A stretch of 38,486 nucleotides of DNA from an uncultured Methanosarcinales archaeon (GTDB lineage Archaea > Nanobdellota > Nanobdellia > Woesearchaeales > CAZXZL01), in NCBI GenBank assembly GCA_964645415.1, contig CAZXZL010000003.1:4124-42609 (forward strand), read 5' to 3'. The translations under genes and the position numbers were made by a program. The notes beneath the pieces are model-generated. The model saw only the letters and a program-made list of their open reading frames with translations. It was not told the origin of the DNA and made no database searches. Position 1 is the stretch's first letter, and the number at the start of each line of letters is the position of its first letter. This document shows positions 12,796-38,342 of the stretch, one piece after another.

Positions 12796-13018
12796 CTTAG
12801 ATGATTTGTTCTCAAATTTTATCGAATTTGATAAGGATGGTACTATACTACCTGTAGCACTGTAGTTTCTATTAAATTCTATTTGTTTTTATCTTATTCA
12901 TATAATTACTTTTTTTTAGATGATTTTGATTTCTACTTTCTTTAGCTAAAGAAGAATACATACTGCACACTTAAACGAATAAATACACTTTAGCTAAAAC
13001 GAATACAGACTCTTTAGC
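12796..13018 (+). repeat. Intergenic repeat family, copy A (includes a 12-bp palindrome and ~24-nt tandem units)
   Basis: It shares cttagatgattt, aaggatggtac...gcac..tagtt..ttctattt, ttagatgattttgat and ctttagctaaag with copy B. A 26-nt core (12835-12860) is identical to the reverse complement of 38281-38306. Confidence 0.8.
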
Positions 13019-13113
13019 ATAATCTTTTTATTATTAATATAAATATATTTTAGTATACAAAATAATATAATAGATTAGAAAAATATATAAATTAACAAAA
13101 AGGATATTTGATA

Positions 13114-16100
13114 ATGGTAGAGTATACTATAGCGCATGCTACAATAGCCCTGTTAATAATCGCAGTTGTAGGAGGAGTAGGATCCACAGTAATAACTGAT
13201 GCAGAAAGTGATATTCTTGGAATTTGGGGTGAAGATCAAGAAGAGGATGTAGGATTTGAGCCGTATGAACCTGAATTAACTCAAAGTGAAAATGTTGTAG
13301 TCGATAATGTAATGTATTTTAAAGAAGGTGTTGAAATTTTTGAAAGGATTTCTTCTGACATTGTAAGTAATGAAAATCAAGTTGATTCAATCACTGGTGC
13401 TGGTTTTAGTTCACCTGTTTCAACCCAAGATTTACCAAGTGATATAAATGGTTATACTATTTATGATTTAATTTCTGAAACCAAAAATTATTATTCTGAT
13501 ATTGAAGACCCTAATTATAAAGATATAAATAACCCTTGTACAGATTATCTTGACTCAGGAAATCCTTCTTTTAAATTATCTATAGATAATAGTGATGAAG
13601 AAAATAGTAATCAAGATACTTTGAATACATATTTTTGTGGTGCTTTTGAGTTAGATAATAAAGATGATTTTCCGGATTATATTAAATATGAAAAAGATGA
13701 TAATAAGTTAACAATCCCAGTTAGCCATAGTCCATTTTCAGAACTTTTCTTAAACTATCAAAATATATTACCTAATGAAGGGCCAAGAACAGATGCTGGT
13801 CAATGGAGTACTGGTGATATGAGTCATTTGTTTAGTGAATCTCCTTTAAATGAAATAAACTTAGTTTTTCAAGTAGAGGATTATAGTGGGGATATGACTC
13901 ATATTATTGTACCTTTTGATACTGACCCTGAAGACTTTGAATTTTTTTACTTTGAAGATACTGAGTTAGAGTATAGTATTGCCCCACTTGTATTTAATGG
14001 AGGTTTTACAATACCATACTTTTACTTACCTGAACCTTGTTATGATGGAGATGGTGAGTTTGAAGATGAATGTCTTGGACAATCAAGTGGTTTTTTGGGA
14101 AGTTTTAGAGATTATTTAAATCAAAATTATAACTATCCTTCTTATCTTTTTTATTATGATTCTTTTCCTGAATCTGAAGAAGCTCATTGGGATTTTGATG
14201 AAGGAACATCTTTTTTCTGGGATATTATGTTCTCAGATTTATCTTATATTTATGATTCTATTTCTTCTCTTTTTTTAACAGAGGATGATGAAAATTTTGA
14301 AACGGATGGTGATATTTTTAATCATTTAGATGAGTCATATCGTGAGGGTGGAATTTTATACATGATGGGTTACCATGGTAATACTTCTAGAATCGTTCTT
14401 AATTATATTTTAGAAATTACAAAAGATAATAAAAAAGACATGATGGAAGATTTTTTGAGAGGTGATATACACAATGCTTGGAATAATGCTCCAGATAGAA
14501 TCATGAAAAATTTATTTTTAGATTTCTTTACAATTGAAGAAGAAAATGAACTTAGAGATAATACAATTAGTATTATTGAACGTTCAGTTTATAGTGATTA
14601 CGTAGATAATGTTTTAATGTTGCTTGATATAGAACCAAAAGTTACAGGATTTAATAATCAAGTTTCTGATTTTTTAGACCAATCTGATTCAAAATATATT
14701 TTAGAAGATAAATTAATGGAAGAGTATAGCGAGTCAAAATCAAATTTTTATTTATCTACATTAGAACAAATGGGTTCTTCTAATTTCTTTGATGCTTTTT
14801 CATCAATTGATCATAAAATATTACTTTTAAAAAATTATGAAAATAAAAACTATAATAAAAAAGACTTTAATCTTAATAGTTATCTTAATGATTTATCAAG
14901 GACTAAATCTGATGATGTCATTGAAAGTACTTTAAAGTTTAGTAGTATTCCTATTAATGAAGATTTAGAAAATTTCATTAAAGAAGTCGGATTAGAACGG
15001 TTTCATTCTTCACTAGAAAATTATTTTTCTTCTGGAAATAACTGGGATGATTTTTTTAAATCTTTTACTGGAAAAAACTTTAACTCTTTTGATAATTTCA
15101 TATATCAATATCCTTATTCAGAGATTAGTAGTTTTTCCGAATCTGAATTAGCTAGTTTAGGAATTTTTTTCATTATTGGAACTGAAAAATATCAATATAA
15201 ATATTTTAGGGATTTCTTATATAACAATCAACTTGAAGAGGATTTATACCTTGCTTCTGCTCAAAGTGGAAACAATTATGCTTCTTTTGAGATTGATAGT
15301 CCTCTATTTATAGATAAAGGAGGTGAAAATGTACCACAAAATTTTCATCTTATTTCACCTTGTCTTACTAACATCGATTTAACTTATGATAAAACATATT
15401 ATGAAATTGGGTCAAATGTTATCTACTTTCATGATGGTGTTTTACGGTTAAGTGATTCTTTAGAATCTGAGATAAAAGAAGATCTTTTATGTGAAAAAGA
15501 ATTTATTTTTGACCCTTATTTTGATTTAGAAAAAGATGATAGAGATGATTTGAATAATTACTTATTTGATCAATACTTTAATGATGATAAAAATCTGTTT
15601 TTTGAAATGATCTTTGAGAGTGATTTCTTTGATAAAAATTCTATTTTTGAATTCTATGATAATTTATATGAAGAATGTTTAAATGATTTATATTGCCATT
15701 TCTTTTTAGATGCATATCATTTAGATGAGGTTGCTGGAGAGATTTTATTTCAATTTTTTTCAGGCTTCCATAATTTTGGTGACTCCTTTCAATTTTATCC
15801 TATTTTTGGAAATAAAACTGATGGTGTTTGGAACTTTAATTTTGAATCGACTTTTGATGAGGGGCATCATAGTTATAGTTCTGCTAAGGGGGACTTTTTT
15901 ATAACTTCTGATAATATTCCAGCTTTTTTATTTCCTATTGCTTTAAGACATCGTTACCCACAATCTGATAATTTAAATGATGCAATTGACTCTGCATTTA
16001 ATGAATTTAATAAACTAAAACAGATTGAGGGAGAATGTAGTGAAATTATTTCATTAGTTGATGAGTATTTTTATTATGATTTTTATACAAAAATTAGAGG

Positions 16101-19100
16101 AAAAACTAGCGTATATGATTACTATTATTCTTCGGGTTCTCATAATTTTATAGATTCAGAATATCCTGAAAATTCTTTTTATGATTATTTTTATGTTAAT
16201 GAGTATACCTCTTCTGAAATTAATGACTTTAATGAGATTCTTTCTGAAGACCATATTCAAAAGTGGTTAAATGATAGAATTGGAAAGTTTAAATATGATT
16301 CTACTAAAGAAAATTTTATGTGTATTGAATATGTTGAAGAGTATATTTCAAATAAAGTAGATAACATTTTAGAATTAAAAGAGAGTTCTTCTTGTAATGA
16401 AGAGGTTAATTTAAATACTGGAGAAAGTATATCCTCGAGAATATCTACTAGTGAACGTAATAATATTATTATGCCAAATGAACCTTGTTTTAATGATCTC
16501 TTTCATCTTGAAAATATATTAAGTACCTCTTATTTACCTTTTGTTATAGATTCTTTATACTACGGAAAATCAAATATTGATAAAAATAATAGATACAATG
16601 AATTTATTGAAGAATTAATTTTACCTACTGTTTATATTGATGAAATAAGAAGAAATCATCAATCGATTTCAACATCAGATGAGAATTACAAAGAAAAGAA
16701 TCCTGAACTTAATACATACTTAAAACCATTTTCCTTTTTCTTTCAATTTTTATATCAAGATGTTGATGATAATTTAATTGTTTCTGATTTAGATGATAAA
16801 ATAAATAATTTATGTTCTGTTCCAGGGAGTTGTAATTATGAAGAATTAGATTATTTGAATTTTTCTGAATTAATTCATGAAAATAGTGATAATTTTAATA
16901 CTTTTTATTCTCCTTTTAGAGATTTTTTATTAATCCCAGATGATTTTGAGAGATTTAATTTAGACTTTAGTGAATCTGATAGTTCTGATGAAATCTATTC
17001 TAACCTTGAAAATATGTTTTCTTCAAAAGGTACCATGTGGAAAGATGATTATTTTGATATGATTTCTTTTATTAATCAAAATACTGATGGTGATTCTAAT
17101 AATTTACTTTTTGATTTTTATGAACAATTATATTCTGATTGTCTTTCTAATTTAGAATGTTCAATGTTTTTAGAATATTATAATCTTGATGAAGTCGTTG
17201 GAGAAATTCTTTTTAGATATTTTTCTGATTATTATCGATTAAATGAGATGTTTATAAGCATTGGTAGTAGTAGTTATTGGGATAATAAAAAACTATTTGT
17301 TACAGAAAGGAACATACCTTCTTTTTTATTTCCTATTGGATTAATGTATCGTTATAATACTAAATCTCTTGATGATGCATTAGATTTAGCAATCAATGAA
17401 TTTGATAATGAGATAAGTTCTGATTTAAGTTGTAATCAAATTATAAATATGGTTGATGAATATCTTTATGTTGATTATTTTAATAACAGACATTCTAGTG
17501 AATCATATTATGATGTATTTACAAGGGAAGGGGCAGGAATCGGTGCAACTGGCGATACACTCCCTATTCATTTTTATCAATCATACTCTGAAAATGAACT
17601 ATTTGAAGATTTAGAGACTGTAGATGATTGGTTTGATTTATTAATTGATGATTTATTTAATGAGTCAAGACCTTTAATGTTTGATGACTTTTCTTGTCTT
17701 AAAGAAGTTGAATCTTATGTAAATGACACATTAAACAAAATTAATGATAAATTTGAATCGAGTTCATGTAATAGTGATTTATTGTTAAGCCATTATGAAA
17801 GTGAAAAAATTGATTCAGATAGTGAAAATTTACCTAATAATTATTGTTTAAAAGAAATTCATAAATTAGACAATTTTTTATCTTCTAAAGGTTTACCTGA
17901 AATGATTGATAAATTACATAAGGGTGAAACATTAACATTTAATCTTGGACAAAGAAAATCTGACTTGAAAGATATAATGGAGACTTCACTTTATGAAAGT
18001 ATGTCTGATAATTTAAAAGGAAACTTTTTAGTCCCTTTTAATATGTTTTTTAACTTTTTAGATAATAATCAAGATAAAAACTCTTTTATAGATAATTCTT
18101 GTTACTATCCTTCATCTGATAATCATAATGATTTATTCATTTCAATAATTAGTGAACATATTGAAAAAGAATGTGAAAATAATTTTAAACCAGAAAGTTT
18201 ATTTGATAGGATATACAGTCTTAATATTATAAATGAGAATCACTTTGATAAATCTTATTTATATGATTTATTTAGTGATTTTGATGGTGAGATATGTGAT
18301 ATTCCTAGTACTGGAGAGGATTTCTTAAAAGAGATACATCAAAAAATAAGTGATGATTATAATAGTTTACATACTGATTTTATAATTTGTGACTTTGACT
18401 ATTATAATTTTAATCATGATTTATCAAAACATTTTCAAAACTCATTTAATGATTACGAATCAAATTTTTATCTTGATATCCCTTATCTTTTCTTTTCATT
18501 TTTATATGATGAAGATGTTTTAGATATTGATGGTTTAAAAACTCATGATAAAATTCTTAGTAGGCTTTTTAATTATGACTCAAAATCAAATATTCGTGGA
18601 AGTGATTTATGTGAAGAGAATTTCTTGTATTGTTTTTTTAATGAAGAGTTATTTGGTTATTATTATAATTGTTCTGATTATTCTGTTTCAGATGTTTCTC
18701 AAGATAGATCGGACTTTGTTTCACCAAGTTATATTTTAAGTGAACAATTATTTGATCCCATATCTTATGATATTCCTCTTCAAAATGTAATAGGAAGATT
18801 ATCATCTTATGTTGATAGTGATGATGATTTAGATTTTGATCAAAATGAATTCTATGATATTTTTTACAAAGAAGAACAATTTTCAACGAAAAATAATATT
18901 TTAGCTGAATCTGACCATATGAATGGTTTTTGTTATGGTAATTCATTTGAATTAAGAAAATCAAATGTTATTTTAACACAACTTAGATCTCAACAAATTG
19001 CTTTAAACGTTATAAGTGGTGCAGTTGGTTTTAAAGTAGGTTATAAATTTGGAGGTTTTATTGGTGGAAAAGCTGGTGCTGTTGCAGGAACTGGTGTTTT

Positions 19101-19275
19101 ACCGGGTATTGGTACTGGTGTTGGAGGTGCTGCAGGAACAGGATTAGGTGGTGGTTTAGGTGGGGGTATAGGATCTTTTCTTTTTTCAAGATCAACAAAT
19201 TTAGTTTATGATTTTATTATTTATCATCATGAAAGAGATCGTCTATATTGGCCAGAATCAGGGGTGGCATCATAA
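13114..19275 (+). CDS. Giant (2,053 aa) highly acidic, D/N/F/Y/S-rich surface protein with an N-terminal hydrophobic anchor, an internal ~330-380-aa duplication and a C-terminal glycine-zipper segment
   Basis: Uninterrupted ORF. The track start 13108 is TTG and the first ATG is 13114. The N-terminus is MVEYTIAHATIALLIIAVVGGVG. Duplicated blocks are visible directly (see findings). The C-terminus is GGFIGGKAGAVAGTGVLPGIGTGVGGAAGTGLGGGLGGGIG. I recognise no catalytic motif. Confidence 0.85.
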   Translation: MVEYTIAHATIALLIIAVVGGVGSTVITDAESDILGIWGEDQEEDVGFEPYEPELTQSENVVVDNVMYFKEGVEIFERISSDIVSNENQVDSITGAGFSSPVSTQDLPSDINGYTIYDLISETKNYYSDIEDPNYKDINNPCTDYLDSGNPSFKLSIDNSDEENSNQDTLNTYFCGAFELDNKDDFPDYIKYEKDDNKLTIPVSHSPFSELFLNYQNILPNEGPRTDAGQWSTGDMSHLFSESPLNEINLVFQVEDYSGDMTHIIVPFDTDPEDFEFFYFEDTELEYSIAPLVFNGGFTIPYFYLPEPCYDGDGEFEDECLGQSSGFLGSFRDYLNQNYNYPSYLFYYDSFPESEEAHWDFDEGTSFFWDIMFSDLSYIYDSISSLFLTEDDENFETDGDIFNHLDESYREGGILYMMGYHGNTSRIVLNYILEITKDNKKDMMEDFLRGDIHNAWNNAPDRIMKNLFLDFFTIEEENELRDNTISIIERSVYSDYVDNVLMLLDIEPKVTGFNNQVSDFLDQSDSKYILEDKLMEEYSESKSNFYLSTLEQMGSSNFFDAFSSIDHKILLLKNYENKNYNKKDFNLNSYLNDLSRTKSDDVIESTLKFSSIPINEDLENFIKEVGLERFHSSLENYFSSGNNWDDFFKSFTGKNFNSFDNFIYQYPYSEISSFSESELASLGIFFIIGTEKYQYKYFRDFLYNNQLEEDLYLASAQSGNNYASFEIDSPLFIDKGGENVPQNFHLISPCLTNIDLTYDKTYYEIGSNVIYFHDGVLRLSDSLESEIKEDLLCEKEFIFDPYFDLEKDDRDDLNNYLFDQYFNDDKNLFFEMIFESDFFDKNSIFEFYDNLYEECLNDLYCHFFLDAYHLDEVAGEILFQFFSGFHNFGDSFQFYPIFGNKTDGVWNFNFESTFDEGHHSYSSAKGDFFITSDNIPAFLFPIALRHRYPQSDNLNDAIDSAFNEFNKLKQIEGECSEIISLVDEYFYYDFYTKIRGKTSVYDYYYSSGSHNFIDSEYPENSFYDYFYVNEYTSSEINDFNEILSEDHIQKWLNDRIGKFKYDSTKENFMCIEYVEEYISNKVDNILELKESSSCNEEVNLNTGESISSRISTSERNNIIMPNEPCFNDLFHLENILSTSYLPFVIDSLYYGKSNIDKNNRYNEFIEELILPTVYIDEIRRNHQSISTSDENYKEKNPELNTYLKPFSFFFQFLYQDVDDNLIVSDLDDKINNLCSVPGSCNYEELDYLNFSELIHENSDNFNTFYSPFRDFLLIPDDFERFNLDFSESDSSDEIYSNLENMFSSKGTMWKDDYFDMISFINQNTDGDSNNLLFDFYEQLYSDCLSNLECSMFLEYYNLDEVVGEILFRYFSDYYRLNEMFISIGSSSYWDNKKLFVTERNIPSFLFPIGLMYRYNTKSLDDALDLAINEFDNEISSDLSCNQIINMVDEYLYVDYFNNRHSSESYYDVFTREGAGIGATGDTLPIHFYQSYSENELFEDLETVDDWFDLLIDDLFNESRPLMFDDFSCLKEVESYVNDTLNKINDKFESSSCNSDLLLSHYESEKIDSDSENLPNNYCLKEIHKLDNFLSSKGLPEMIDKLHKGETLTFNLGQRKSDLKDIMETSLYESMSDNLKGNFLVPFNMFFNFLDNNQDKNSFIDNSCYYPSSDNHNDLFISIISEHIEKECENNFKPESLFDRIYSLNIINENHFDKSYLYDLFSDFDGEICDIPSTGEDFLKEIHQKISDDYNSLHTDFIICDFDYYNFNHDLSKHFQNSFNDYESNFYLDIPYLFFSFLYDEDVLDIDGLKTHDKILSRLFNYDSKSNIRGSDLCEENFLYCFFNEELFGYYYNCSDYSVSDVSQDRSDFVSPSYILSEQLFDPISYDIPLQNVIGRLSSYVDSDDDLDFDQNEFYDIFYKEEQFSTKNNILAESDHMNGFCYGNSFELRKSNVILTQLRSQQIALNVISGAVGFKVGYKFGGFIGGKAGAVAGTGVLPGIGTGVGGAAGTGLGGGLGGGIGSFLFSRSTNLVYDFIIYHHERDRLYWPESGVAS

Positions 19276-19388
19276 TGGATGAAGATACAACAAAAATACC
19301 TTTTGTATTAATAATAGTAATAACTTTAATGCTACTAGGATTTATTTTAATGTCAGTTATAATCACAAATATTTTAACTGCTAACTAA
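19275..19388 (+). CDS. 37-aa single-TM micro-protein (below the ORF-track cutoff)
   Basis: I translated this myself: MDEDTTKIPFVLIIVITLMLLGFILMSVIITNILTAN. Its ATG overlaps the giant gene stop (TAATG at 19273-19277), which suggests translational coupling. Confidence 0.5.
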   Translation: MDEDTTKIPFVLIIVITLMLLGFILMSVIITNILTAN

Positions 19389-19413
19389 GTTTTAAAATAA
19401 AAAGATAAATAAA

Positions 19414-20274
19414 ATGGTTTATGATAATAAAAAGGGAATGCCTGCAGTTTTAGTTTCAATTATTCTAATGACTATTGTTTTTTTAATTTTATTATCTCTT
19501 GCAGGAGAGATTATGACTTTAGTTGTATCTGGAACTGATGATTTACGTTGTACTTGGAGTGCTGTTTTACATTCACATACATCAACTTTTTTTATGGGTG
19601 ATGGATTTGAACTAGATTGTAAAATAGATACTATTTTTATTAGTCTACAAAGAGACAATGATGAAAACCCTACAGATATTACTTTTCGTCAGGATGGTAA
19701 TGACCAGAGTATAGGTGTTCCTCAAAGATATCTCAATGCTGTTGAATCATGGAATCAAAACTCTTATGGAGAAGGTTTTTCATTTAATAATCCAAGCCAT
19801 AGGATTAGATATTTTTATGATACAAAAATTTCTCGTGAAATGATTGATTGTAAACAAAAGTTAGGAGATGGAAATATTGAACTTTTTGGTAATGATCCTA
19901 GTGGAAATACTTGTGTTATTTGTACTCGTTTTGTAATCCCAAATGAAAATGATTTAAATTATTTAAAACATATAACTCAAGGTGAATTAGTGGGTGAATT
20001 TTTAAGATCAAATCCTTATTCTTTTACTGATATTGACCATCAAAAATCATTGTGGGAAAAAATTAGATTTGAAGGACAAAGTGACCTTTTTGATACTATT
20101 GGTTATGATATGGATGAAAATCTTCTTATTGTTTATTCTGTATCAAGTGGTGGCCCTCTTGAGAGTATTCCTGTTATTGGACATTTATTTAGTGAAGATG
20201 ATAATGTAGGTCATAATATTTTTTTAACAACACCTGATGATTTAAGTAATTATTGTGATACTGTTGCAAACTGA
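19414..20274 (+). CDS. Pilin-like N-terminus protein (class III signal peptide-like), orphan globular domain
   Basis: 286 aa. The N-terminus MVYDNKKG-MPAVLVSIILMTIVFLILL has a basic patch, a small residue and about 20 hydrophobic residues. Six Cys are present. Confidence 0.6.
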   Translation: MVYDNKKGMPAVLVSIILMTIVFLILLSLAGEIMTLVVSGTDDLRCTWSAVLHSHTSTFFMGDGFELDCKIDTIFISLQRDNDENPTDITFRQDGNDQSIGVPQRYLNAVESWNQNSYGEGFSFNNPSHRIRYFYDTKISREMIDCKQKLGDGNIELFGNDPSGNTCVICTRFVIPNENDLNYLKHITQGELVGEFLRSNPYSFTDIDHQKSLWEKIRFEGQSDLFDTIGYDMDENLLIVYSVSSGGPLESIPVIGHLFSEDDNVGHNIFLTTPDDLSNYCDTVAN

Positions 20275-20281
20275 GGTTAAA

Positions 20282-20425
20282 ATGTTAAATAAAAAATCAA
20301 TGGAATTTTCGTATCTTGCTGGATTTTTACTAGCATTACTTTTTTTATTTTTATTAATACTTTTTATTGGAAATATGGCTTCTGAAAGTTTTGGAGTTAT
20401 TTCCTTTCTTGAAAGTGTTTTTTAA
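20282..20425 (+). CDS. 47-aa micro-protein with a pilin-like N-terminus (below the ORF-track cutoff)
   Basis: I translated this myself: MLNKKSMEFSYLAGFLLALLFLFLLILFIGNMASESFGVISFLESVF. A GAGG site lies 5 nt upstream of the ATG, and the gene fills the gap between two operon genes. Confidence 0.45.
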   Translation: MLNKKSMEFSYLAGFLLALLFLFLLILFIGNMASESFGVISFLESVF

Positions 20426-20433
20426 GAGGTGAT
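20426..20433 (+). promoter_or_regulatory. Shine-Dalgarno site (GAGGTGAT)
   Basis: It lies 3 nt upstream of ATG 20437. The same GGTGA/GAGGTGA core recurs upstream of ATGs at 9985, 11714, 12165, 27108(-), 29029, 30617, 31890, 32749, 33665 and 37377. Confidence 0.6.
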
Positions 20434-20436
20434 AAT

Positions 20437-20721
20437 ATGGAAGGTAGAGTTTTAGTTGGACTTATAATTGTGCTTTTATTAATTGTAGTTTTAATGCCGA
20501 TTTTTAGTGGAACAATTATTGATTCTTTTCAAGGGATGATGAGTGATAGAGAGGATGCAATAGGTGGTGCTTCAGGAGAAAAATGTGTTAGTAGTGTTAC
20601 TCCAAATAATATTTGTGAAGAGGAATACCAAAGACTTGATTATTATGAACAAGTAACTTATGAAATTGTTGCAGGAGACTATGAAGATTGTGAAGGTCAT
20701 TGTTATAGGCCAGTTTCTTAA
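20437..20721 (+). CDS. Small secreted or anchored protein (N-terminal TM, Cys-containing acidic domain)
   Basis: 94 aa. MEGRVLVGLIIVLLLIVVLMPIF is followed by an acidic domain with 4 Cys. A strong Shine-Dalgarno site precedes it. Confidence 0.6.
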   Translation: MEGRVLVGLIIVLLLIVVLMPIFSGTIIDSFQGMMSDREDAIGGASGEKCVSSVTPNNICEEEYQRLDYYEQVTYEIVAGDYEDCEGHCYRPVS

Positions 20722-20723
20722 GA

Positions 20724-23106: not shown

Positions 23107-23163
23107 TTATTAAAAATAGATTTATTTAATTTGAATTGTTTATTTTAAATTTTAGTGGTTTAA

Positions 23164-25617: not shown

Positions 25618-25631
25618 TTTTTAATTATTTT

Positions 25632-27108: not shown

Positions 27109-27225
27109 TTGAAAAATCAACCTCTTTTATTGAGTTAATAGTATTATCAGTATAATAATTTACCCATCTTATTTAAATTTTTCAGAATTTTTTTTATTTT
27201 TTTATAAACTTCTCTTATTTTTTAA

Positions 27226-27499
27226 CTTAGATGATTTAATCTCAATCTTTATCACAATTTTTATCAATTACTAAAAACAAAGTTTTTAGAATCTTTAAAT
27301 CAAAGATTTAATAGAAATTGGTAAGGATGGTACCATTCTAACGAATGGCACGGTAGTTTCTATAGTTATTCTATTTTATTACTGTTTCTGTTTTTATAAA
27401 CTTCTATTATTCCATTTCTAGAGGATTTTGATTTCTACATCATCGAAGATAAAAAGAGATTTCTACTTTCTTTAGCTAAAGCGAATACTACTTTCAAAG
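27226..27499 (+). repeat. Intergenic repeat family, copy B
   Basis: It has the same ordered blocks as copy A: cttagatgattt at 27226, aaggatggtac at 27323, gattttgatttctac, and the palindrome ctttagctaaag at 27470-27481. It also carries an internal insertion and a local duplication of gatttctac. Confidence 0.8.
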
Positions 27500-27587
27500 A
27501 AAAAAGAACGTAGATTATTTATTTGCACAATTATTTTATAATTTAAATTTAATAAAATTATTTTTATTTATTAAAAAATCAAAAGTA

Positions 27588-27596: not shown

Positions 27597-27621
27597 ATAT
27601 GTTTTTTTAGTTCATGTTGAT

Positions 27622-27707: not shown

Positions 27708-27768
27708 TTTTGTTCTTTTTTAACATATTTTCGAAATTATTAAATACTTCAAAAAACAATAGTTCTAT

Positions 27769-28326: not shown

Positions 28327-28329
28327 TTT

Positions 28330-28989: not shown

Positions 28990-29028
28990 ATGTTATAAGA
29001 AAACTTTATATTAATATTGGTGAGCCTT

Positions 29029-29547: not shown

Positions 29548-29549
29548 TA

Positions 29550-30617: not shown

Positions 30618-31099
30618 TGAAAAAATCACAGATTAAAATGGCTGAAACAGTATCTGTTCTTGTTATTTTTATTCTTGTCACTTTTATAGGATTCATTTTT
30701 TACTCTAACTATGAACAGACTCAATTAAGGAGAATTGAAAATAGATTTTCTGAATATGCTTCATTAGAAACTGTTCAATTGATAACATATCTTCCTGAGT
30801 TAAGATGTCCAACTACTGAAATGTCAAGAGGTTGTATTGATCTTTTAAAACTTAAATCTTTTATTAATAAAAGTGATGAAGGTCAAGAAGAGTTTCTTTT
30901 AGATTATATTGATACTTTAGGAAATAGTCGGATTCAGTTAAAAACTCATTATCCGAATAATTATTCTTTTTTAGTTTTTGATAACCTGCAAGAGGATGCA
31001 CCAAGAATTGATACTACATTTGTTCATGTTTCTTTGTATGATCCATTAAATTCAACTTATAATTATGGTGTTTTGGAGGTGGAACATGCTTCAAATTAA
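30617..31099 (+). CDS. Pilin-like N-terminus protein (minor-pilin candidate)
   Basis: The N-terminus is MKKSQIKMAETVSVLVIFILVTFIGFIFY. There is a TAATG stop/start overlap and a GAGGTGG site upstream. Confidence 0.6.
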   Translation: MKKSQIKMAETVSVLVIFILVTFIGFIFYSNYEQTQLRRIENRFSEYASLETVQLITYLPELRCPTTEMSRGCIDLLKLKSFINKSDEGQEEFLLDYIDTLGNSRIQLKTHYPNNYSFLVFDNLQEDAPRIDTTFVHVSLYDPLNSTYNYGVLEVEHASN

Positions 31100-31544
31100 T
31101 TCTAAATTTGGACAAACTGAAATAATTGGTTTACTTGTATTTATTTTATTATTATTTTTAGGGGTACTATTTGTTGTAATGAATTCTTTAGGTGATTCTG
31201 GTACTTTGCGAGAGGATTTTAGATATTCAGTATATGCTAGATCCTCACTTAATACTTTTTTATCAATGACTTTAGATGATGGTAGAGATTATTCAGAATT
31301 ACTTGTGGATAGTATTTCTGATGAGGATGAAGGAAATATTGATTATTTGAGTAATGTCTCTTTTGATATCTTAAATGAGACTTTTATTTATATGAATCAA
31401 GATTTTCATTACACAGTTGTTCACGAAGATGAATATTACATTGATTTAGGTCCTGGTTGTGCTGGTCGTAATACTGAAGCATCTAATTACCCTATCCCTG
31501 TTGGAGATGGTACTACTGTTTATTTTCAGATGGAAGTTTGTTAA
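31086..31544 (+). CDS. Pilin-like N-terminus protein (minor-pilin candidate)
   Basis: The track ORF starts at 31065. I prefer ATG 31086 (MLQINSKFGQTEIIGLLVFILLLFLGVLFVV), preceded by GGAGGTGG. It overlaps the upstream gene by 14 nt. Confidence 0.55.
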   Translation: MLQINSKFGQTEIIGLLVFILLLFLGVLFVVMNSLGDSGTLREDFRYSVYARSSLNTFLSMTLDDGRDYSELLVDSISDEDEGNIDYLSNVSFDILNETFIYMNQDFHYTVVHEDEYYIDLGPGCAGRNTEASNYPIPVGDGTTVYFQMEVC

Positions 31545-31592
31545 TAATTGATGCGAAATCTTTTTATATTATAATTATTGTTTTAGGTACAT

Positions 31593-31862
31593 ATGGTAAA
31601 TATCACAAAAAAATCAGAAGGTCTTAGTATGAATCTTATTGTTATCACTGCTATTGCTCTTGTTGTTTTAGTTGTACTTGTAGCAGTATTCACTGGAAGA
31701 ATGGGAGGTTTCACTTCTGATGTTGATTCTGGTACCCAATGTGTGGAAGGTTTTGGAGGAGAATGTGTTTCTGAAGACTCAGACATAGGAGATAGAGAAA
31801 TTTTAGGTTATGGTGAGTTAGTAGGTTGTGATGATAATCAAATTTGTGTAGAGCGAGAATAA
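31593..31862 (+). CDS. Mini-pilin 1 of 4 (class III signal peptide, Cys4 C-terminal domain)
   Basis: MVNITKKSEG-LSMNLIVITAIALVVLVVLVAVFTGRMGGFT is followed by a roughly 45-aa acidic domain with 4 Cys. It is paralogous to the next three genes. Confidence 0.75.
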   Translation: MVNITKKSEGLSMNLIVITAIALVVLVVLVAVFTGRMGGFTSDVDSGTQCVEGFGGECVSEDSDIGDREILGYGELVGCDDNQICVERE

Positions 31863-31889
31863 TTATAATTAATTTTGAGGTGTATAATA

Positions 31890-32156
31890 ATGAAAAAAGG
31901 TCAAGGATTAAGTATGAATGTTGTTGTAATCGCAGCTGTTGCTGTTATTGTTTTAGTAGTTTTAGTTGCAATCTTTACTGGACAGATGGGAGGTTTCACT
32001 GAAGGTCTTGAAGGAACAACTGAGTGTGAAAGTATAGGTGGAACTCAATGTTATGATGAAGAGAGTTTACCTGAAAATCATACTATTATTGGAAGAGGTT
32101 CTGGTGCAGGTTGTGAAGATGAAGATCAACCAATTTGTGCAAGAGATGATGGTTAG
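31890..32156 (+). CDS. Mini-pilin 2 of 4
   Basis: The track start 31875 is TTG. I prefer ATG 31890, after GAGGTG. The sequence is MKKGQG-LSMNVVVIAAVAVIVLVVLVAIFTGQMGGFT followed by a Cys4 domain. Confidence 0.75.
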   Translation: MKKGQGLSMNVVVIAAVAVIVLVVLVAIFTGQMGGFTEGLEGTTECESIGGTQCYDEESLPENHTIIGRGSGAGCEDEDQPICARDDG

Positions 32157-32189
32157 TAAAATTTAACTTTTTTATAATTTAATTTGAAA

Positions 32190-32453
32190 ATGAAAAAAAG
32201 TCAAGGTCTTAGTATGAATGTAATTGTAATTAGTGCTGTTGCTTTAGTAGTATTAGTAGTTTTAGTTGCAATTTTCACTGGACAGATGGGAGGTTTCACT
32301 TCTGATGTTGATTCTGGTACTAGTTGTGAAACTGGTTTTGGTGGTGAATGTATGTCTGAAGATGATTCTAATTTACTTAATGGTACTATTTTAGGTAGAG
32401 GAGAATCAGTTGGTTGTGAACCTAATGAAGTTTGTTTTAGTGAGAACAATTAA
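32190..32453 (+). CDS. Mini-pilin 3 of 4
   Basis: The track start 32184 is TTG and the ATG is at 32190. The sequence is MKKSQG-LSMNVIVISAVALVVLVVLVAIFTGQMGGFT followed by a Cys4 domain. A 35-nt tract (32286-32320) is identical to 31701-31735. Confidence 0.75.
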   Translation: MKKSQGLSMNVIVISAVALVVLVVLVAIFTGQMGGFTSDVDSGTSCETGFGGECMSEDDSNLLNGTILGRGESVGCEPNEVCFSENN

Positions 32454-32471
32454 TTTTTTTAGTTGATATTT

Positions 32472-32723
32472 ATGAAAAAAGGTTATTCGTTAAGTATGAG
32501 TGTTATTGTTACAACAGTCTTAGCATTAATTGTATTAGTAATATTAATTGCAGCTTTTACAGATTATGTTGGCGATGCTGGTGATGACATTGAACATTTA
32601 GACAATGATTGTGAAGTTGCAGGTGGGACATGTGTTTCACAAAGAGATAGTGAATGTAGAGATATAGGAGGATTTGTTATTGATAGAGATTGTCCTTCAA
32701 ATCAATTTTGTTGTATGGTATAA
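32472..32723 (+). CDS. Mini-pilin 4 of 4 (divergent, 6-7 Cys)
   Basis: The track start 32463 is TTG and the ATG is at 32472. The sequence is MKKGYS-LSMSVIVTTVLALIVLVILIAAF followed by a Cys-rich domain ending in CCMV. Confidence 0.7.
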   Translation: MKKGYSLSMSVIVTTVLALIVLVILIAAFTDYVGDAGDDIEHLDNDCEVAGGTCVSQRDSECRDIGGFVIDRDCPSNQFCCMV

Positions 32724-32733
32724 TTTTTTAATT

Positions 32734-32740
32734 GAGGTGA
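32734..32740 (+). promoter_or_regulatory. Shine-Dalgarno site (GAGGTGA)
   Basis: It lies 8 nt upstream of ATG 32749. Confidence 0.55.
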
Positions 32741-32748
32741 GTCTTTAA

Positions 32749-33441
32749 ATGTATGGTATAGAAACTTTAGGGAATTCTATTTGGTATCCGCTTAAATCCT
32801 TTGGGATTGGTTTAATTGAATTTATTCCACAACTTTTAGCAGCAATTATTGTGCTGGTATTTGGTTATTTTTTAGGTGTTTTATTAGAAAAAGGAATAAA
32901 GAAATTAATGAATTGGTTGAAGATTGATAAAGAATTTACAATTGATGATTATCATGGTTTTACAGCAAACATGTCTTTAGAAAAGACAGTTTCTGCGATT
33001 GCAAAATGGTATGTATTTATACTATTTGTTCAAGCAGCACTTCCTTTACTAAATTTAGGTGCGTTAAATGATTTTGCAAACCAATTTGTTTTATGGCTTC
33101 CAAATCTAATTGCTGGTGTAGTAATTGTCTTATTTGGCCTATATGTATCTGATTTTTTAGGAAAAGAGCTTTCAAATGTTAGAAATAAAGTTAGGAGTAA
33201 GCTTGCAGAACTTGGAAGATATTTACTTGCTTTTATATTCATTCTAGTTGGTCTTGAGCAAGTGGGTATTAAAGTAGCAGTTGTTCAGCAAACATGGCTT
33301 ATTATGTTTTCTGGTGTCGCTTTAGCTTTTGGTTTAGCTATTGGATTAGGTTTTGGACTTGGCATGAAAGAATATGCTAAGGAAATAATTGAAGAACTCC
33401 AAATGAAATATCGACATCAACATGATGAGGAAGCTAACTAA
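32749..33441 (+). CDS. Membrane protein with two conserved-TM-helix repeats (mechanosensitive-channel-associated TM_helix family-like)
   Basis: Two copies of the pattern (F/W)-(I/L)-P-x-L-(L/I)-A-x-(I/V)-(I/V)-V-L-x-F-G are present: LIEFIPQLLAAIIVLVFGYFLG and VLWLPNLIAGVVIVLFGLYVS. The pattern is recalled from the TM_helix repeat family. Confidence 0.5.
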   Translation: MYGIETLGNSIWYPLKSFGIGLIEFIPQLLAAIIVLVFGYFLGVLLEKGIKKLMNWLKIDKEFTIDDYHGFTANMSLEKTVSAIAKWYVFILFVQAALPLLNLGALNDFANQFVLWLPNLIAGVVIVLFGLYVSDFLGKELSNVRNKVRSKLAELGRYLLAFIFILVGLEQVGIKVAVVQQTWLIMFSGVALAFGLAIGLGFGLGMKEYAKEIIEELQMKYRHQHDEEAN

Positions 33442-33490
33442 AGATAAATTTGATATTTATCTTTGATTTTTTTTCTTTTTTTCTTTATTT
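33442..33490 (+). terminator. Hairpin plus T-tract terminator-like element
   Basis: The stem is AGATAAAT (33442-33449) paired with ATTTATCT (33455-33462) around a 5-nt loop. A T-rich run (ttgattttttttcttttttt) follows, directly after the stop at 33441. Confidence 0.45.
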
Positions 33491-33664
33491 TTTCTATTCT
33501 CTTTTCAATATATTTCAAACACAAAAATTAGTATATTTTTTTCTTATTTAGCTTTAATTATAAGTGTGAATCTTTTAAAGTACAATATTCACACTTTAAA
33601 AAACTTTTTATAAACTTTAATTATTAAACTAAAGTCTATTGTTTTAAAAACTTAAGAGGTTAAA

Positions 33665-34156
33665 ATGGAAAAAGAAAATAAAAAGAAATTTTTGATGACA
33701 GGATTTGTTGGTTTATTATTAGGAATATTTTTAATTTCAGTATTAATGTTTTTATCTGCACCATCTTTAATGATGATTGAATCTGAAAGTATGTATGACT
33801 TTGATGAAACTGTTAGTAGATTTAAAGAAATAGTTAATCAATCTGACTGGGGAATTTTAAATACTCATGATATGCAAGAAGTAAAGTCAAATTTAGGTTA
33901 TGATGTTTTACCAGTAAAAGTTTTTGATCTTTGTAGTGGCGAGTACTCTTATGAAATTTTAAAAAATGATGATGAAAGGATTGTTACTCCTATGATGCCT
34001 TGTAGAGTATCTATTTATGAAAAAAGTAATGGAAATACATACATTGGTATGATGAATTCTGGTTTAGTTGCAAGGTTATTTGGTGGAACAATAAATGAAG
34101 TAATGCAAAAAGCAACTGTTGAAACAAGAGAAATTGTTAATCAATTAACTGTATAG
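33665..34156 (+). CDS. DUF302-domain protein with an N-terminal TM anchor
   Basis: 163 aa. ..FDETVSRFKEIVNQSDWGILNTHDMQ....LPVKVFDLC....MPCRVSIYE matches the DUF302 pattern. An AGAGGT Shine-Dalgarno site is present. Confidence 0.6.
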   Translation: MEKENKKKFLMTGFVGLLLGIFLISVLMFLSAPSLMMIESESMYDFDETVSRFKEIVNQSDWGILNTHDMQEVKSNLGYDVLPVKVFDLCSGEYSYEILKNDDERIVTPMMPCRVSIYEKSNGNTYIGMMNSGLVARLFGGTINEVMQKATVETREIVNQLTV

Positions 34157-34163
34157 TTAGTTT

Positions 34164-35084
34164 TTATTTCAAGAAATTCATTGTTGTTTTTGTAATTTTT
34201 TTCTTTTCTTTTAATTTAGATATATCTCTTCTTAATTTTGAACTATTTTCCATTCCTTTTGAAAAACTCATTAATATTCTTTTATAGACTGATGATTTGA
34301 ATTGCCTTTTAATTATCTCATTATTGTTTTTATAGTAGTTCTCCATTGATTTCCAAAGTTTAATAAAATCTAAAAACATTTCTTTTTTATTTTTATAATT
34401 TGAATCAACATCAGGGTTTTTTAAAGCATATCTCCCTACCATAATCTCTTCAAAACCTTTTGATTTATGATTAATATTTTTATAATTGAGATCACCATTA
34501 CCAACAAATGTTATTTCTCTATATTTTTCTTTTATTTCTTTTAATCTTTTCCAATTTGCTTTTCCAGAATATCCTTGTTTTTTTGTTCTCCCATGTATAA
34601 TAACTAAATTAACTATATCTTTTACTTCTTTTAATATTTCATCTGAATTATCTTTCTCAAATCCTAACCTTATTTTTATATTTATAGGGATATGTGTAAT
34701 TTTATTTAATTTCAAGATATATTCTTTAATTTTATTTGGATACTTTAACATATAACTTCCCTCTTTATTCCCTACAACTCTTTTTGATGGACATCCAAAG
34801 TTAAGATTTATGAAATCACAGTTTTTATTAATATAATTTAATTCTTTGTCATTTTTAGATAAATATGATATTAGTTTGTCTATTTTTCCTATTAATTGAA
34901 TCCCATACTCACCTTTTTTATTTAGGAAAATATTTGGTTCATGAATCCCTTTAAATGATATTTCATGTGGATGACACATTTCAGAAATAGTTACATCATA
35001 TCCTAAATTTTTTGCAAATGTTCTAAATACTACATTTGTAAACTCATCAATTGGTGCAAGCCAGATTTTTTTTATATGTGACAT
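34164..35084 (-). CDS. tRNA-dihydrouridine synthase (Dus family)
   Basis: WLAPIDEFTN, FINLNFGCP and VIIHGRT motifs are present. I moved the start from the track's 35138 to ATG 35084 (MSHIKKIWLAP), because 35101-35138 belongs to the RNase P RNA. Confidence 0.8.
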   Translation of the reverse strand: MSHIKKIWLAPIDEFTNVVFRTFAKNLGYDVTISEMCHPHEISFKGIHEPNIFLNKKGEYGIQLIGKIDKLISYLSKNDKELNYINKNCDFINLNFGCPSKRVVGNKEGSYMLKYPNKIKEYILKLNKITHIPINIKIRLGFEKDNSDEILKEVKDIVNLVIIHGRTKKQGYSGKANWKRLKEIKEKYREITFVGNGDLNYKNINHKSKGFEEIMVGRYALKNPDVDSNYKNKKEMFLDFIKLWKSMENYYKNNNEIIKRQFKSSVYKRILMSFSKGMENSSKLRRDISKLKEKKKITKTTMNFLK

Positions 35085-35100
35085 TTTTATAATAAAATTA

Positions 35101-35340
35101 GATGGTAGATATAAGCCTCCTTCTGTATTAACTGGCATTTATCTACGCACTTACGTTTTCACAGGTAGGGATTCACTACGTTTCATTCAAATTATAATAT
35201 GTCATCTTTGCAGAATCATTCTAATATTATAATTTGATTCGTTTCTGTGTAAACCCAAAGCTATTAACTTTACACCTTGCGATGCCTACTCATCTGTGGG
35301 AGGACTTTCCTCATTATTATGTTGGCCAGCATCTACCATC
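35101..35340 (-). ncRNA. rnpB: RNase P RNA (compact, ~240 nt)
   Basis: On the minus strand, P1 is GAUGGUAGAU/AUCUACCAUC, a perfect 10 bp closing the molecule. P2 is GCUGGC/GCCAGU. CR-I is GAGGAAAGUCCUCC. CR-V is ACAGAAGGAGGCUUAU, which forms P4 (AAG-U-CCUCC/GGAGGCUU) with the canonical bulged U. GUGAAAACGUAAGUGCG resembles the conserved CR-II/CR-III specificity-domain motifs. The region is GC-enriched relative to its flanks. Confidence 0.85.
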
Positions 35341-35463
35341 TAAATATTGAACTAATTACTTATTTATCTAATTTATCCTATTTTTCTTTAAATAATTAAG
35401 TTATTTATAAAAAAGACTACATATTATCAAAAAAAATAAATAAGATGATTTAGAATTAATATT

Positions 35464-36648
35464 ATGAGCTCGCGAAAAAAAATTCTAATCGCAACTGACA
35501 ATTTTTTTCCTAGATGGGATGGTATTGTTCGTTTTCTTTATGAAATTGTTCCATATATAAAAAAATTCTATGATATTACAATATTAGCTCCTGATTTTAC
35601 AGATGATTTTTTTACAAATGATGAAGAAATGTCTATGTTTAAAAAAAGGTTTAAAGGTGTTAAAATAGTTTATTTTGATACTTCTAGTTTTTATGTTAAT
35701 GATTTTTCTTTTGCAAAAATAAATAAATCTACTATGAGAAGTTACATTAAAGATTCTGATGTTGTTTGGACTCATGCACTTGGTTCAATTGGATCAAATG
35801 CTATTGAAATTGCAAATGAAGAAGGTATTACAAATATTCATTACACACATTCTTTTACTTGGGAGTTAGTAGATTCTGTTTTAGATTTTCCTGTTGTCAA
35901 ACAAATTACTTCTTATATTACTAAATATTATGTTTTTAAAAAATATAAACTTCTTGATAAAATAATTGTTCCATATAAAGATATGATCGAAACTTTTAAA
36001 GATCTTGGAGTAAAATCTTCTTATGAAGTTATACCATTAGGAGTTAATACTAATGTTTTTAGAAGTAAGGGAAATATTGCAAAAAATGCTCTTAATATTA
36101 AAGGTCCTTCTATAGGATATTGTGGAAGGCTTGCTAAAGAAAAAAATATTGATATTGTCTATAAAACTTTTAAAAAATTAAAAAAAGAAATAGATGATTT
36201 ATCTTTAGTCATTTTAGGAAGTGGTTTAAGTAAATATGAAAAATTATTTAGTAATGATAATGATGTGAAATATATTAAGTCTACTATATTTCCACAAATG
36301 GTTTATCGAGCAATGGATGTATTTTTATTACCTTCTTATACTGAAACAACTTCTCTTACTACTTTAGAAGCTATGTCGACAAAGTCAGTTCCAATTGTTT
36401 CAAATGTTGGTTATCTTGGAAACTATGTTGAATCTGATTATAATGGATATATTCTTGATATCTCAAATAAATCTTTTAATGAATCTGTTGATCTTTTTTA
36501 TGACCGTGCAAAATTAGTTTTAAAAAATGAGTCTTTAAGAAAAAGACTCTCAAGAAATGCAAGAAAAACTGTAAAACTAAACTTTAATCTTGATAAAACA
36601 AAGATAGAAATAAATAATTTATTGAAAAGATGTTTAAATGATAATTAG
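35464..36648 (+). CDS. Glycosyltransferase, GT4 family (GT-B fold)
   Basis: 394 aa. GRLAKEKNIDIV, FLLPSYTETTSLTTLEAMSTKSVPIVSNVG (the E-x7-E region) and an N-terminal ILIATDNFFPRWDGI are present. Confidence 0.8.
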   Translation: MSSRKKILIATDNFFPRWDGIVRFLYEIVPYIKKFYDITILAPDFTDDFFTNDEEMSMFKKRFKGVKIVYFDTSSFYVNDFSFAKINKSTMRSYIKDSDVVWTHALGSIGSNAIEIANEEGITNIHYTHSFTWELVDSVLDFPVVKQITSYITKYYVFKKYKLLDKIIVPYKDMIETFKDLGVKSSYEVIPLGVNTNVFRSKGNIAKNALNIKGPSIGYCGRLAKEKNIDIVYKTFKKLKKEIDDLSLVILGSGLSKYEKLFSNDNDVKYIKSTIFPQMVYRAMDVFLLPSYTETTSLTTLEAMSTKSVPIVSNVGYLGNYVESDYNGYILDISNKSFNESVDLFYDRAKLVLKNESLRKRLSRNARKTVKLNFNLDKTKIEINNLLKRCLNDN

Positions 36649-37313
36649 TATATTAAAACAAATTCTTCAGCAAATAAATAATTGTTAGCCCATCCTGCAA
36701 ACTTTGATCTTATAAGAACGATTGGTGTAAGCTGGTAAATTGATATTTTTTGAGATTTAAATTGTTTTAATGCTTTAATTTTATCTCCAATATATTTGCT
36801 TATATCAAAATAAATCTTTATTTCATCCTTTAATTTTAGTGGTAAAATATTCCATACTTGAAAACCATAAACATTACCTTCAAAATTAATTTCTTTTACA
36901 GATTCTAGTGTTAATCTGTTTAAATATTTATGCATCGAATGTGGATCACTTTCTAAGTGTGTAAATATTCTATCTGGATTTTTTCTTTTAATTATTTCTT
37001 TTATTTTTCCTTTTAATTCTTCATCAAATTCCTTTGTATTCATATTATCAGTTATCTCTTTTTCATAATAATCCATGAATTTTACTTCTCCCCCAAGAAT
37101 ATCTGATGCTTTTCTTGATTCCTCAACTCTTTTAGTTTTTATTACATCTTTTTTTATCCAAGGATTTCCTAATTCACCATAAGTTAATATATATGATTCT
37201 ATTCCTTGACCTTCTGAATTAAATTTTGCAATAATCCCTCCACAACCTAATATTTCATCATCAGGATGAGCTGATATTATCAAATTTTTTATTTTTTTAG
37301 CCATTTTTATCAA
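36645..37313 (-). CDS. PIG-L/LmbE-family N-acetylglucosaminyl deacetylase
   Basis: The signature LIISAHPDDEILGCGG is present, with a downstream H..H region. Its stop codon overlaps the convergent GT4 stop (36645-36648). Confidence 0.85.
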   Translation of the reverse strand: MIKMAKKIKNLIISAHPDDEILGCGGIIAKFNSEGQGIESYILTYGELGNPWIKKDVIKTKRVEESRKASDILGGEVKFMDYYEKEITDNMNTKEFDEELKGKIKEIIKRKNPDRIFTHLESDPHSMHKYLNRLTLESVKEINFEGNVYGFQVWNILPLKLKDEIKIYFDISKYIGDKIKALKQFKSQKISIYQLTPIVLIRSKFAGWANNYLFAEEFVLIY

Positions 37314-37364
37314 AATATTTATATAATATTGTTGTTATTTATTACTATTGAGTAGTATGGGTTT

Positions 37365-37371
37365 GAGGTGA
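37365..37371 (+). promoter_or_regulatory. Shine-Dalgarno site (GAGGTGA)
   Basis: It lies 5 nt upstream of ATG 37377. The track ORF start at 37368 is a GTG inside this motif. Confidence 0.55.
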
Positions 37372-37376
37372 CACTA

Positions 37377-38072
37377 ATGAAATTTAAAAAAAATTTTAAA
37401 AATATATTATTACCATTATTATTTACCCTTTTAATAGTTTTCGAATTTGTTTCATCAATGGGGTTATTAGATGGAGAAATGATGTTTGTTCAACTTTTTT
37501 TAAACTTTAACTATCTAATTTTATTTGGAGTATTTCTATTAGTTTATACACAGATAAAGAGTCTTTCTAAGTATCCTTTATATTTTATCTTTTTTGGAGC
37601 TATAATAAATTCTATCTATCTTTATAATAGTTTAGGTGTTTATTCAATCTTGATTATAATTACTTCAGTATTGGGTATTTATGTAACATCAAGTTTATTT
37701 AGACCTAGTAGAAAGTTAAAAAAAGGAATTAGTAAAGTAGAATTATTAAAAAGAGAACTAAAAGATAAATTAGATCAAGATGTTGAAATTTACCATGGCT
37801 CTGAAAGGATTTCTAATAAAGATCTTGAGATTTATCATGATGAAAATGGTGAACCTAAAATTAGGCCATCAAAAAAATCAGTTGAAGAAATTGATATTAA
37901 CACTGCATCTGTTAGTGAATTACAAGAAATTAAATTTATTGGTAAGTCAAGAGCAGAAGAGATTATTAGAAAAAGACCATTTTCAAGTATTGATGAATTA
38001 ATTAATGTTTCAGGGATTACAAAAAATCGTTTAAAACAGATTAAAAAAGAAGGTAAAGCTTATTTAAGTTAA
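37377..38072 (+). CDS. Membrane-anchored ComEA-like helix-hairpin-helix DNA-binding protein
   Basis: The N-terminal part has about four TM segments. The C-terminus, IDINTASVSELQEIKFIGKSRAEEIIRKRPFSSIDELINVSGITKNRLKQIK, matches the ComEA tandem HhH pattern (NtAs..L..l.GIG...A..Ii..R.F.s...L..V.GI....l..i). Confidence 0.75.
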   Translation: MKFKKNFKNILLPLLFTLLIVFEFVSSMGLLDGEMMFVQLFLNFNYLILFGVFLLVYTQIKSLSKYPLYFIFFGAIINSIYLYNSLGVYSILIIITSVLGIYVTSSLFRPSRKLKKGISKVELLKRELKDKLDQDVEIYHGSERISNKDLEIYHDENGEPKIRPSKKSVEEIDINTASVSELQEIKFIGKSRAEEIIRKRPFSSIDELINVSGITKNRLKQIKKEGKAYLS

Positions 38073-38178
38073 TTTTTAAAGTTTGATTCATTCAAGAGGG
38101 TATTACCTTCAAATTTTATCTTTTTTTATTTTTATCTTTATTTTAGTTTAATTTTTATCTTAAAAATCTATATCCATT

Positions 38179-38342
38179 GCTTATCTTCTTCGAAGTTAGT
38201 CCATCAAAATCATCTAAAAAAAAGAAATAGGAGCTTATAAAAACAAAAATAGAAACAAATAGAATAATATGAGAACTAACGTGCTACAGGTAGTATAGTA
38301 CCATCCTGGTCAATTTATTAAACTAAAGTTTAGAACTTGTTA
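38179..38342 (-). repeat. Intergenic repeat family, copy C (inverted)
   Basis: The reverse complement reads ..ttgaccaggatggtactatactacctgtagcacgttagttctc..ttctatttgtttc..ttttttagatgattttgat..tcgaagaagataagc. The 26-nt core (38281-38306) is identical to copy A, and the flanks are similar to copies A and B. Confidence 0.75.

Follow-up and report, generated by a model that had tools for sequence, protein, structure and literature searches.

The stretch of DNA examined here (the window) comprises 38,486 nucleotides, positions 4124-42609 of contig C3 of an archaeal genome of 961 kb (0.96 Mb; 79 contigs, 25% GC, scored 100% complete), and contains three copies, termed A, B and C, of an intergenic repeat. 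The archaeal nature of the host is shown by its RNase P RNA, Hjc and RPA-like OB-fold proteins. The original prediction had described the repeat as a set of shared, ordered sequence blocks around a 26-nt core enriched in GC, and a reading of the sequence placed all three copies where they had been predicted, with every one of the listed blocks present. The core GGATGGTACTATACTACCTGTAGCAC occurs exactly twice in the window, on the forward strand at 12835-12860 in copy A and on the reverse strand at 38281-38306 in copy C, compared to an expectation of 0 from 100 shuffles, and its GC content is 46% as opposed to 25% for the genome. The core of copy B (27325-27351) has the same flanks around a hairpin with a different but fully paired stem, CCATTC-TAAC-GAATGG, and is a compensated variant. 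A self-comparison of the window for repeats recovered A and C as an inverted pair (71 nt, 82%) as well as A and B as a direct pair 14,430 nt apart. The extents originally given to the copies did not hold: when the borders were set by the depth of matches to other intergenic segments, all three elements turned out to be longer.

The elements are built of the same modules in the order M-T-P1(insert)-K-M-T'-tail, which is constant, in a single orientation, in about 50 regions. M is a T-rich, TATA-like stretch and T is the box TTAGATGATTT. P1 is an AT-rich hairpin of 7-8 bp whose loop may hold 40-200 nt of further hairpin modules, and K is a 33-nt core of the form AGGAUGGUA-(6-bp hairpin P2)-CAC-nn-UAGUU, near-invariant except for the covarying stem of P2. 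The short form measures 37 nt from T to K; the long forms carry at least one of three recurring insert types, placed after the P1 loop sequence TTTATCA. The tails are assembled from a few recurring pieces (e.g. CTTTAGC, CGAATAC and TTCGAAGAAGAT) that are almost confined to the repeats, and tandem units and convergent pairs are common. A clustered regularly interspaced short palindromic repeat (CRISPR) array was ruled out, since the units measure 120-350 nt and their variable parts are themselves a few recurring modules and not unique spacers. A coding mini-open reading frame (TTG…TAG) running through P1 and K was rejected too: K occurs in variants of 33 and 34 nt that, like the P1 inserts, shift the frame, so that no reading frame is conserved.

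Copy A spans approximately 12740-13015 on the forward strand and shows the modules in the order M, T, P1, K, M, T', tail; the repeat depth rises from 3 to more than 30 at 12740-12756 and is below 5 beyond about 13010. Its T box TTAGATGATTT, as read from the sequence, occupies 12797-12807 and is followed by P1 in its short form (TCAAATTT-TATC-GAATTTGA, 12812-12831), the stem of which covaries among copies, and by K (GGATGGTAC-hairpin-GCAC-TG-TAGTT, 12835-12867), with P2 at 12840-12860. The T-rich/TATA-like M and the second T box take up 12868-12926 (T' at 12916-12926), and the variable tail with its CTTTAGC and CGAATAC modules 12927-13015. The core of copy A is flanked on both sides by a direct repeat, D7 (12758-12807 and 12877-12926), a 50-nt T-rich stretch ending in TTAGATGATTT.

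Copy B, also on the forward strand, extends by repeat depth over approximately 27186-27520, with the T box at 27227-27237, the 5' arm and loop of P1 at 27255-27266, a P1 insert of 47 nt at 27267-27313, the 3' arm of P1 at 27314-27320, K with the compensated P2 variant CCATTC-TAAC-GAATGG at 27325-27358, M at 27359-27417, T' (CTAGAGGATTT) at 27418-27428 and the tail at 27429-27520. Copy C lies on the reverse strand and is truncated by the end of the window and contig; by repeat depth, it covers 38181-38486 and beyond. It consists of the tail (38181-38206), T' (38207-38217), M (38218-38273), K (38274-38306, the first 26 nt being identical to copy A), the 3' arm of P1 with a linker (38307-38317) and a long X/D-module insert within P1 (38318-38486). 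Its T box (TTGGATGATTTG) and the 5' arm of P1 are supplied by an independent contig, L161, which reaches 92 nt past the window end and locates them about 40-90 nt beyond it. Since the T box and 5' arm lie there, the 'iteron-like' array at 38316-38486 is an insert of about 195 nt inside P1 of copy C.

The possibility that the copies are an artefact of assembly was checked on the same loci, which exact-protein look-up located in assemblies from ENA (three samples) and Logan (three runs). Copies A (contig L153), B (L157 and L158) and C (L161) were reproduced at 99.9-100% identity and are not an assembly artefact. Logan contigs stop at window positions 12854, 27438 and 38210 and the ENA contig L154 stops at 12740; all four stops lie at or inside the elements, as expected of a true dispersed repeat. 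Across assemblies, only two single-base differences were found within the elements, T/G at 12861, just after GCAC in copy A, and A/T at 27280, in the P1 insert of copy B, and the sampled populations were otherwise identical.

The description as a three-copy family is correct within the window but not for the genome as a whole. The motif GGATGGTAC-N-GCAC-N-TAGTT had 29 exact, 36 near-exact and, allowing up to two mismatches in the first block and one in TAGTT, 59 matches in the whole genome, and a profile of the core plus the downstream module had 91 matches, 78 of them with the core. All but one of these matches (90/91) are intergenic, although open reading frames (ORFs) cover 88% of the genome. 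With repeated sequence defined as that found in three or more other intergenic segments as well, the repeats total 27 kb, equivalent to 2.8% of the genome and 24% of its non-ORF DNA, and are present in 71 of the 153 gaps of at least 250 nt. The T-box 10-mer TAGATGATTT is found 70 times in these 27 kb compared to 5 times in the 85 kb of other intergenic DNA. The family thus comprises at least 60-90 non-coding, hairpin-bearing repeats. Because half of the contig ends (79/158) stop in repeats, the family also explains the division of the assembly into 79 contigs, and the repeats mark the places for long reads and for expected rearrangements.

That the family is structured, as originally proposed, is backed by covariation assessed with shuffles and by RNAalifold. 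The stem of P2 occurs in four haplotypes, CCATTC/GAATGG, CTATAC/GTATAG, CCATAC/GTATGG and CCATAT/ATATGG, all fully Watson-Crick, and in a fifth variant with one U.G pair. An alignment of 53 copies shows the P2 helix to be 98% paired, with double changes at three pairs in 17, 14 and 8 copies, respectively, and none of 500 shuffles reached its covariation score. For P1, assessed in 26 short-form copies, 205 of 264 pairs are Watson-Crick compared to 157±5.5 in shuffles, none of which (0/2000) reached the observed value, and the stem still closes across long inserts. When run on nine short units, RNAalifold predicted P1 and P2 unaided, plus a putative 4-bp stem P3 (AGGA/UYCU) enclosing P2, in which changes are one-sided only (C/U). 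On the written strand, the counts of G.T and A.C pairs are 20 vs 3 in P1, 6 vs 0 in P2 and 28 vs 0 in P3, an excess of G.T that mildly favours folding of this strand. An alternative pairing in copy A, between 12821-12833 and 12870-12882, was rejected since the partner ATTAAATTC accompanies every P1 haplotype and does not covary.

Additional complementarities were noticed. The T box region of copy B (27219-27238) is 85% complementary over 20 nt to a segment of its tail, TACATCATCGAAGATAAAAA (27436-27455), and many copies allow the T' box (UUAGAUGAU) to form, with the tail motif AT(C/T)ATCGAA that lies just downstream of it, a 9-bp hairpin with one conserved mismatch. On contig C1, the sequence TCAAATTTTATCAAA, located at about 1450-1520 in the spacer between the 16S rRNA 3' end (GATCACCTCCT) and tRNA-Ala, resembles the 5' arm and loop of P1, which may be due to chance in such AT-rich DNA.

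Of 65 copies located via M-T' and nothing else, 51 have a K that differs by 0-2 mismatches at the 14 fixed positions, 5 have a K in visible decay and about 9 have none. The mean pairwise identity over K and M is 74%, the columns flanking the fixed positions of K are hypervariable, and these positions are common to all subfamilies while their surroundings differ. It is therefore the sequence of K and the two stems that the family conserves.

With regard to the original suggestion of a family of small structured RNA genes, the dispersed, structured and non-coding nature of the repeat was confirmed, and its status as an RNA gene is left as a rival explanation, possible in our view but rather unlikely. 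In this case, every M would serve as a promoter, with transcription of a multicopy small RNA gene beginning at the T box. The transcript would comprise P1 and K and terminate in the oligo-T of the following M, so that its length would be about 95 nt in the short form and, with inserts, as much as about 300 nt. Another transcript would run from T' over the tail, and a host factor or target would be bound by the conserved single-stranded segments AGAUGAUUU and AGGAUGGUA. In the most frequent type of M, a TATA-like TTTATAAG indeed precedes the A of AGATG by about 24-28 nt, and runs of T5-T6 directly follow K on the written strand only, which together suggest a self-contained transcription unit. 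The covarying hairpins with their wobble pairs favouring the written strand, the invariance of K across subfamilies, an orientation independent of the neighbours, as expected of autonomous genes, and the lack of a mobility enzyme from the six families searched (see below) are consistent with such genes as well. However, the promoters of tRNA genes in this genome carry an A-rich transcription factor B recognition element (BRE), AAAATA-TTTATATA, where M has Ts, and a second type of M (…CATATAATTAC…) has its TATA-like motif just about 18-20 nt away from T, i.e. the spacing is not conserved. Furthermore, there is no Rfam match and no homologue in 300 genomes of the same order, and at least 60 near-redundant genes would be unusual.

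At gathering thresholds, the Rfam search of the whole window returned RNase P and three tRNAs only, and a permissive search over A and B gave nothing but sub-threshold chance matches. Individual classes of RNA were also considered and dismissed. A box C/D small RNA was rejected because the T box UAGAUGAU is not a full C box and the 3' side reads UAGUU, without CUGA, and, on reading the sequence, K-turn and bulge-helix-bulge motifs in K and T proved incomplete. A loose K pattern matched the reverse strand of two tRNA-Leu genes, where only GTGCC and CCATCC are common to both; these matches come from the loose pattern itself and do not point to a tRNA-derived element. A further reading, which we consider unlikely, takes the copies as at least 60 genes, or else cis-elements, for a structured RNA not described before, from a DPANN-like archaeon, that would serve as binding platform or sponge for a host RNA-binding factor or the ribosome. 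Such an RNA could combine a single-stranded, Shine-Dalgarno-like 5' box (AGAUGAUUU), the expandable hairpin P1 and an invariant K domain, and it could either be kept by selection or have spread via a transposase-independent, hairpin-dependent mechanism.

The genomic context bears on the proposal that the repeats serve the surface-protein operons. Relative to the downstream ORF, 27 elements have the same and 27 the opposite orientation; divergent (3), tandem (12) and convergent (5) gaps all hold elements, and adjacency to tRNA genes is not enriched (7/35 vs 136/860, p = 0.48). On other contigs, the repeats neighbour genes for a fused primase, TGT, RtcB, aldehyde dehydrogenase, phosphoglucomutase, MgtE, an Lrp regulator and a KH protein, most neighbour genes being housekeeping genes. 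In light of these data, a dedicated link to surface-protein operons is unsupported, as is the idea of a regulatory module shared by them. The suggested inversion or excision of the 14.4-kb block between A and B fared no better: two independent 65-kb ENA contigs, one containing A and B and the other C, are colinear with the window and thus give no sign of such events, the other assemblies show the reference arrangement only, and the tyrosine recombinase search (PF00589) found no site-specific recombinase. A cis-regulatory or recombination module for surface-protein/pilus operons, acting by co-regulation or by programmed inversion/excision between A, B and C, is accordingly highly improbable to us, even though the giant-protein operon lies between A and B, which are direct repeats, with C inverted, and some copies elsewhere adjoin archaellin-like and S-layer-like genes. 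A promoter cassette for the downstream gene was rejected on account of the balanced orientation and the occupied convergent gaps.

Beyond the host, the family had no match in 40 relatives and a covariance model none in 300 genomes of the same order (0/300). A specific pattern gave 0 matches in 185,579 species genomes plus Joint Genome Institute (JGI) metagenomes, and BLAST against 200 same-order genomes returned T-rich low-complexity matches only, never K. The idea that short parts of the element are kept in relatives was rejected in view of the BLAST and covariance model results. A closest-relative search with an ATPase protein found no close relative, and since the genome has no close sampled relative, the term 'lineage-specific' cannot be given a date.

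On balance, A, B and C are members of a lineage-specific, genome-wide mosaic repeat family that resembles BOX, bacterial interspersed mosaic elements (BIMEs) and neisserial intergenic mosaic elements (NIMEs), and that is somewhat more plausibly than otherwise selfish or near-neutral with conserved cis-acting hairpins. The family would have multiplied in this lineage as selfish or near-neutral repeated DNA, and its copies would have been reshuffled by recombination among one another. K and the hairpins, putative cis-acting parts required for propagation, would fold on the written strand, in the form of RNA or of single-stranded DNA. Side effects of the elements may be hairpins and oligo-T tracts gained by neighbouring transcripts, as well as homology that permits rearrangements.

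A number of observations weigh against selfish or near-neutral repeats. A streamlined 0.96-Mb genome that keeps 2.8% repeats, their core being conserved far beyond its surroundings, fits a host function equally well. The evidence for the folding strand, drawn from base-pair counts, is indirect, and an invariant A.C in the outer part of P2 counts against folding of the written strand. Searches of the genome with six Pfam profiles, the positive controls of which matched, found no Y1/RAYT (PF01797), TnpB (PF07282), reverse transcriptase (PF00078), tyrosine recombinase (PF00589), DDE_Tnp_1 (PF01609) or rve (PF00665) protein, and the ORFs of the genome contain no multicopy protein family except archaellin-like and FtsZ paralogues. 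At the ends of A and B, an inverted-repeat scan detected no terminal inverted repeats, only internal hairpins; there are no clear target duplications at the borders, the right one being fuzzy, and no insertion polymorphism was observed. Finally, lineage restriction, by which BOX, RUP and SPRITE elements have been called parasitic (PMC3049150), speaks for selfish repeats but is a weak argument here, as no other member of this family-level lineage has been sampled.

The data on enzymes and borders also speak against a classical non-autonomous transposon, either a miniature transposable element with inverted repeats (MITE) or a repetitive extragenic palindromic (REP)/REPIN element, with a transposase encoded elsewhere in the genome. 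Such a transposon would account for a high-copy, intergenic, lineage-restricted and hairpin-bearing element that breaks short-read assemblies. However, A and B begin with the T-rich M at a fairly sharp left border and end in the variable tail, where the right border fades over about 80 nt, with neither terminal inverted repeats nor a visible target duplication, and the genome lacking the six mobility families and any multicopy ORF is one scored as 100% complete. We therefore regard this explanation as improbable. The original term 'MITE-like' remains appropriate in the sense of a dispersed, structured, non-coding repeat, but not for a MITE in the strict sense, which would require terminal inverted repeats, absent from the ends of A and B, and a transposase, for which the six families searched gave no match. 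Sites of the integron attC type were rejected as well, as the PF00589 search found no integrase, the elements are not co-oriented and their neighbours are core genes.

Some further observations concern the proteins encoded in the window and next to other copies. PF00589, which had 0 matches in the host genome, was present in 14/14 control genomes, and a XerA-type chromosome resolvase appears to be missing or highly divergent. The sole protein family with more than two copies consists of four archaellin-/pilin-like paralogues (C36:240-1546, C4:13651-14238, C74:1-519). The fused primase (contig C8:12988-14493, reverse strand) combines small and large subunit domains in 501 amino acids, and a repeat copy begins 3 nt past its stop codon. 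Directly beside another copy lies a gene (contig C55:369-1601, reverse strand) for a protein of 410 amino acids with SLT lytic transglycosylase and LysM domains, i.e. a peptidoglycan-directed enzyme in an archaeon. In the window, positions 199-1020 of the forward strand encode a protein of 273 amino acids with two Kazal-type protease-inhibitor domains, unusual for an archaeon, and a weak Pacifastin-like match; the Kazal domains correspond to a 94-nt internal DNA repeat, D2, with 80% identity. A TraB/PrgY/GumN-family protein is encoded at 1471-2166 on the reverse strand, beside tRNA-Arg.

The common view of reduced archaeal genomes of the symbiont type is that they have lost their repeats and mobile DNA. 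Here, one structured family accounts for about a quarter of the non-coding DNA, although no recognisable mobility enzyme of the six families was found. Should it prove selfish, the family would represent an equivalent of the BOX and BIME repeats in archaea; should it prove functional, a new and large family of RNAs.

Among archaeal systems, MITEs (for example the SM elements of Sulfolobus) and the box C/D small RNA genes are likewise high-copy, short, non-coding elements of intergenic DNA, and the T box of the present family contains GAUGA, as the C box does. Unlike these MITEs, the family has neither terminal inverted repeats nor a partner insertion sequence (IS) element, and unlike box C/D genes, it has no complete C box (RUGAUGA), no 3' D box (CUGA) and no K-turn geometry. 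In NIME/dRS3, Correia and Rickettsia palindromic elements, repeat units delimited by a short conserved box are combined into mosaics; these elements are found in genomes that are small or host-associated, where they serve as substrates for recombination and supply promoter or terminator signals. Correia elements carry terminal inverted repeats together with TA target duplications, and the insertion of Rickettsia palindromic elements into genes is in frame; neither terminal repeats with TA duplications nor in-frame insertion was seen in the present family.

REP/BIME and REPIN sequences of enterobacteria and pseudomonads resemble the family in being short, conserved, imperfect palindromes in mosaic intergenic clusters, with pairs in opposite orientation common and hairpins kept by compensatory change; in the present family, P1 and P2 are conserved, 90/91 matches are intergenic, and clusters contain convergent pairs. 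REPs, however, depend on RAYT, a Y1 HUH transposase, for which PF01797 had 0 matches in the host genome, and they are GC-rich and 20-40 nt long, compared to AT-rich modules and a unit of 200-350 nt here. BOX of Streptococcus pneumoniae (boxA-boxB(n)-boxC), RUP and SPRITE are likewise small, non-coding, interspersed repeats of ordered modules in variable internal number, with extensive predicted structure, about 100 copies in one lineage, no dedicated transposase gene and a probable influence on co-transcribed genes (PMC3049150). The modular build is shared with the BOX type by analogy and not by homology, without any sequence similarity, and the present family differs in its archaeal 0.96-Mb host, its near-invariant 33-nt core, its duplicated T box and its oligo-T on one strand only; BOX, for its part, has been demonstrated to be transcribed. 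Taken together, the family does not qualify as a MITE or as a REP/RAYT system by the features that define these, and it is most like BOX and BIME in build and distribution.

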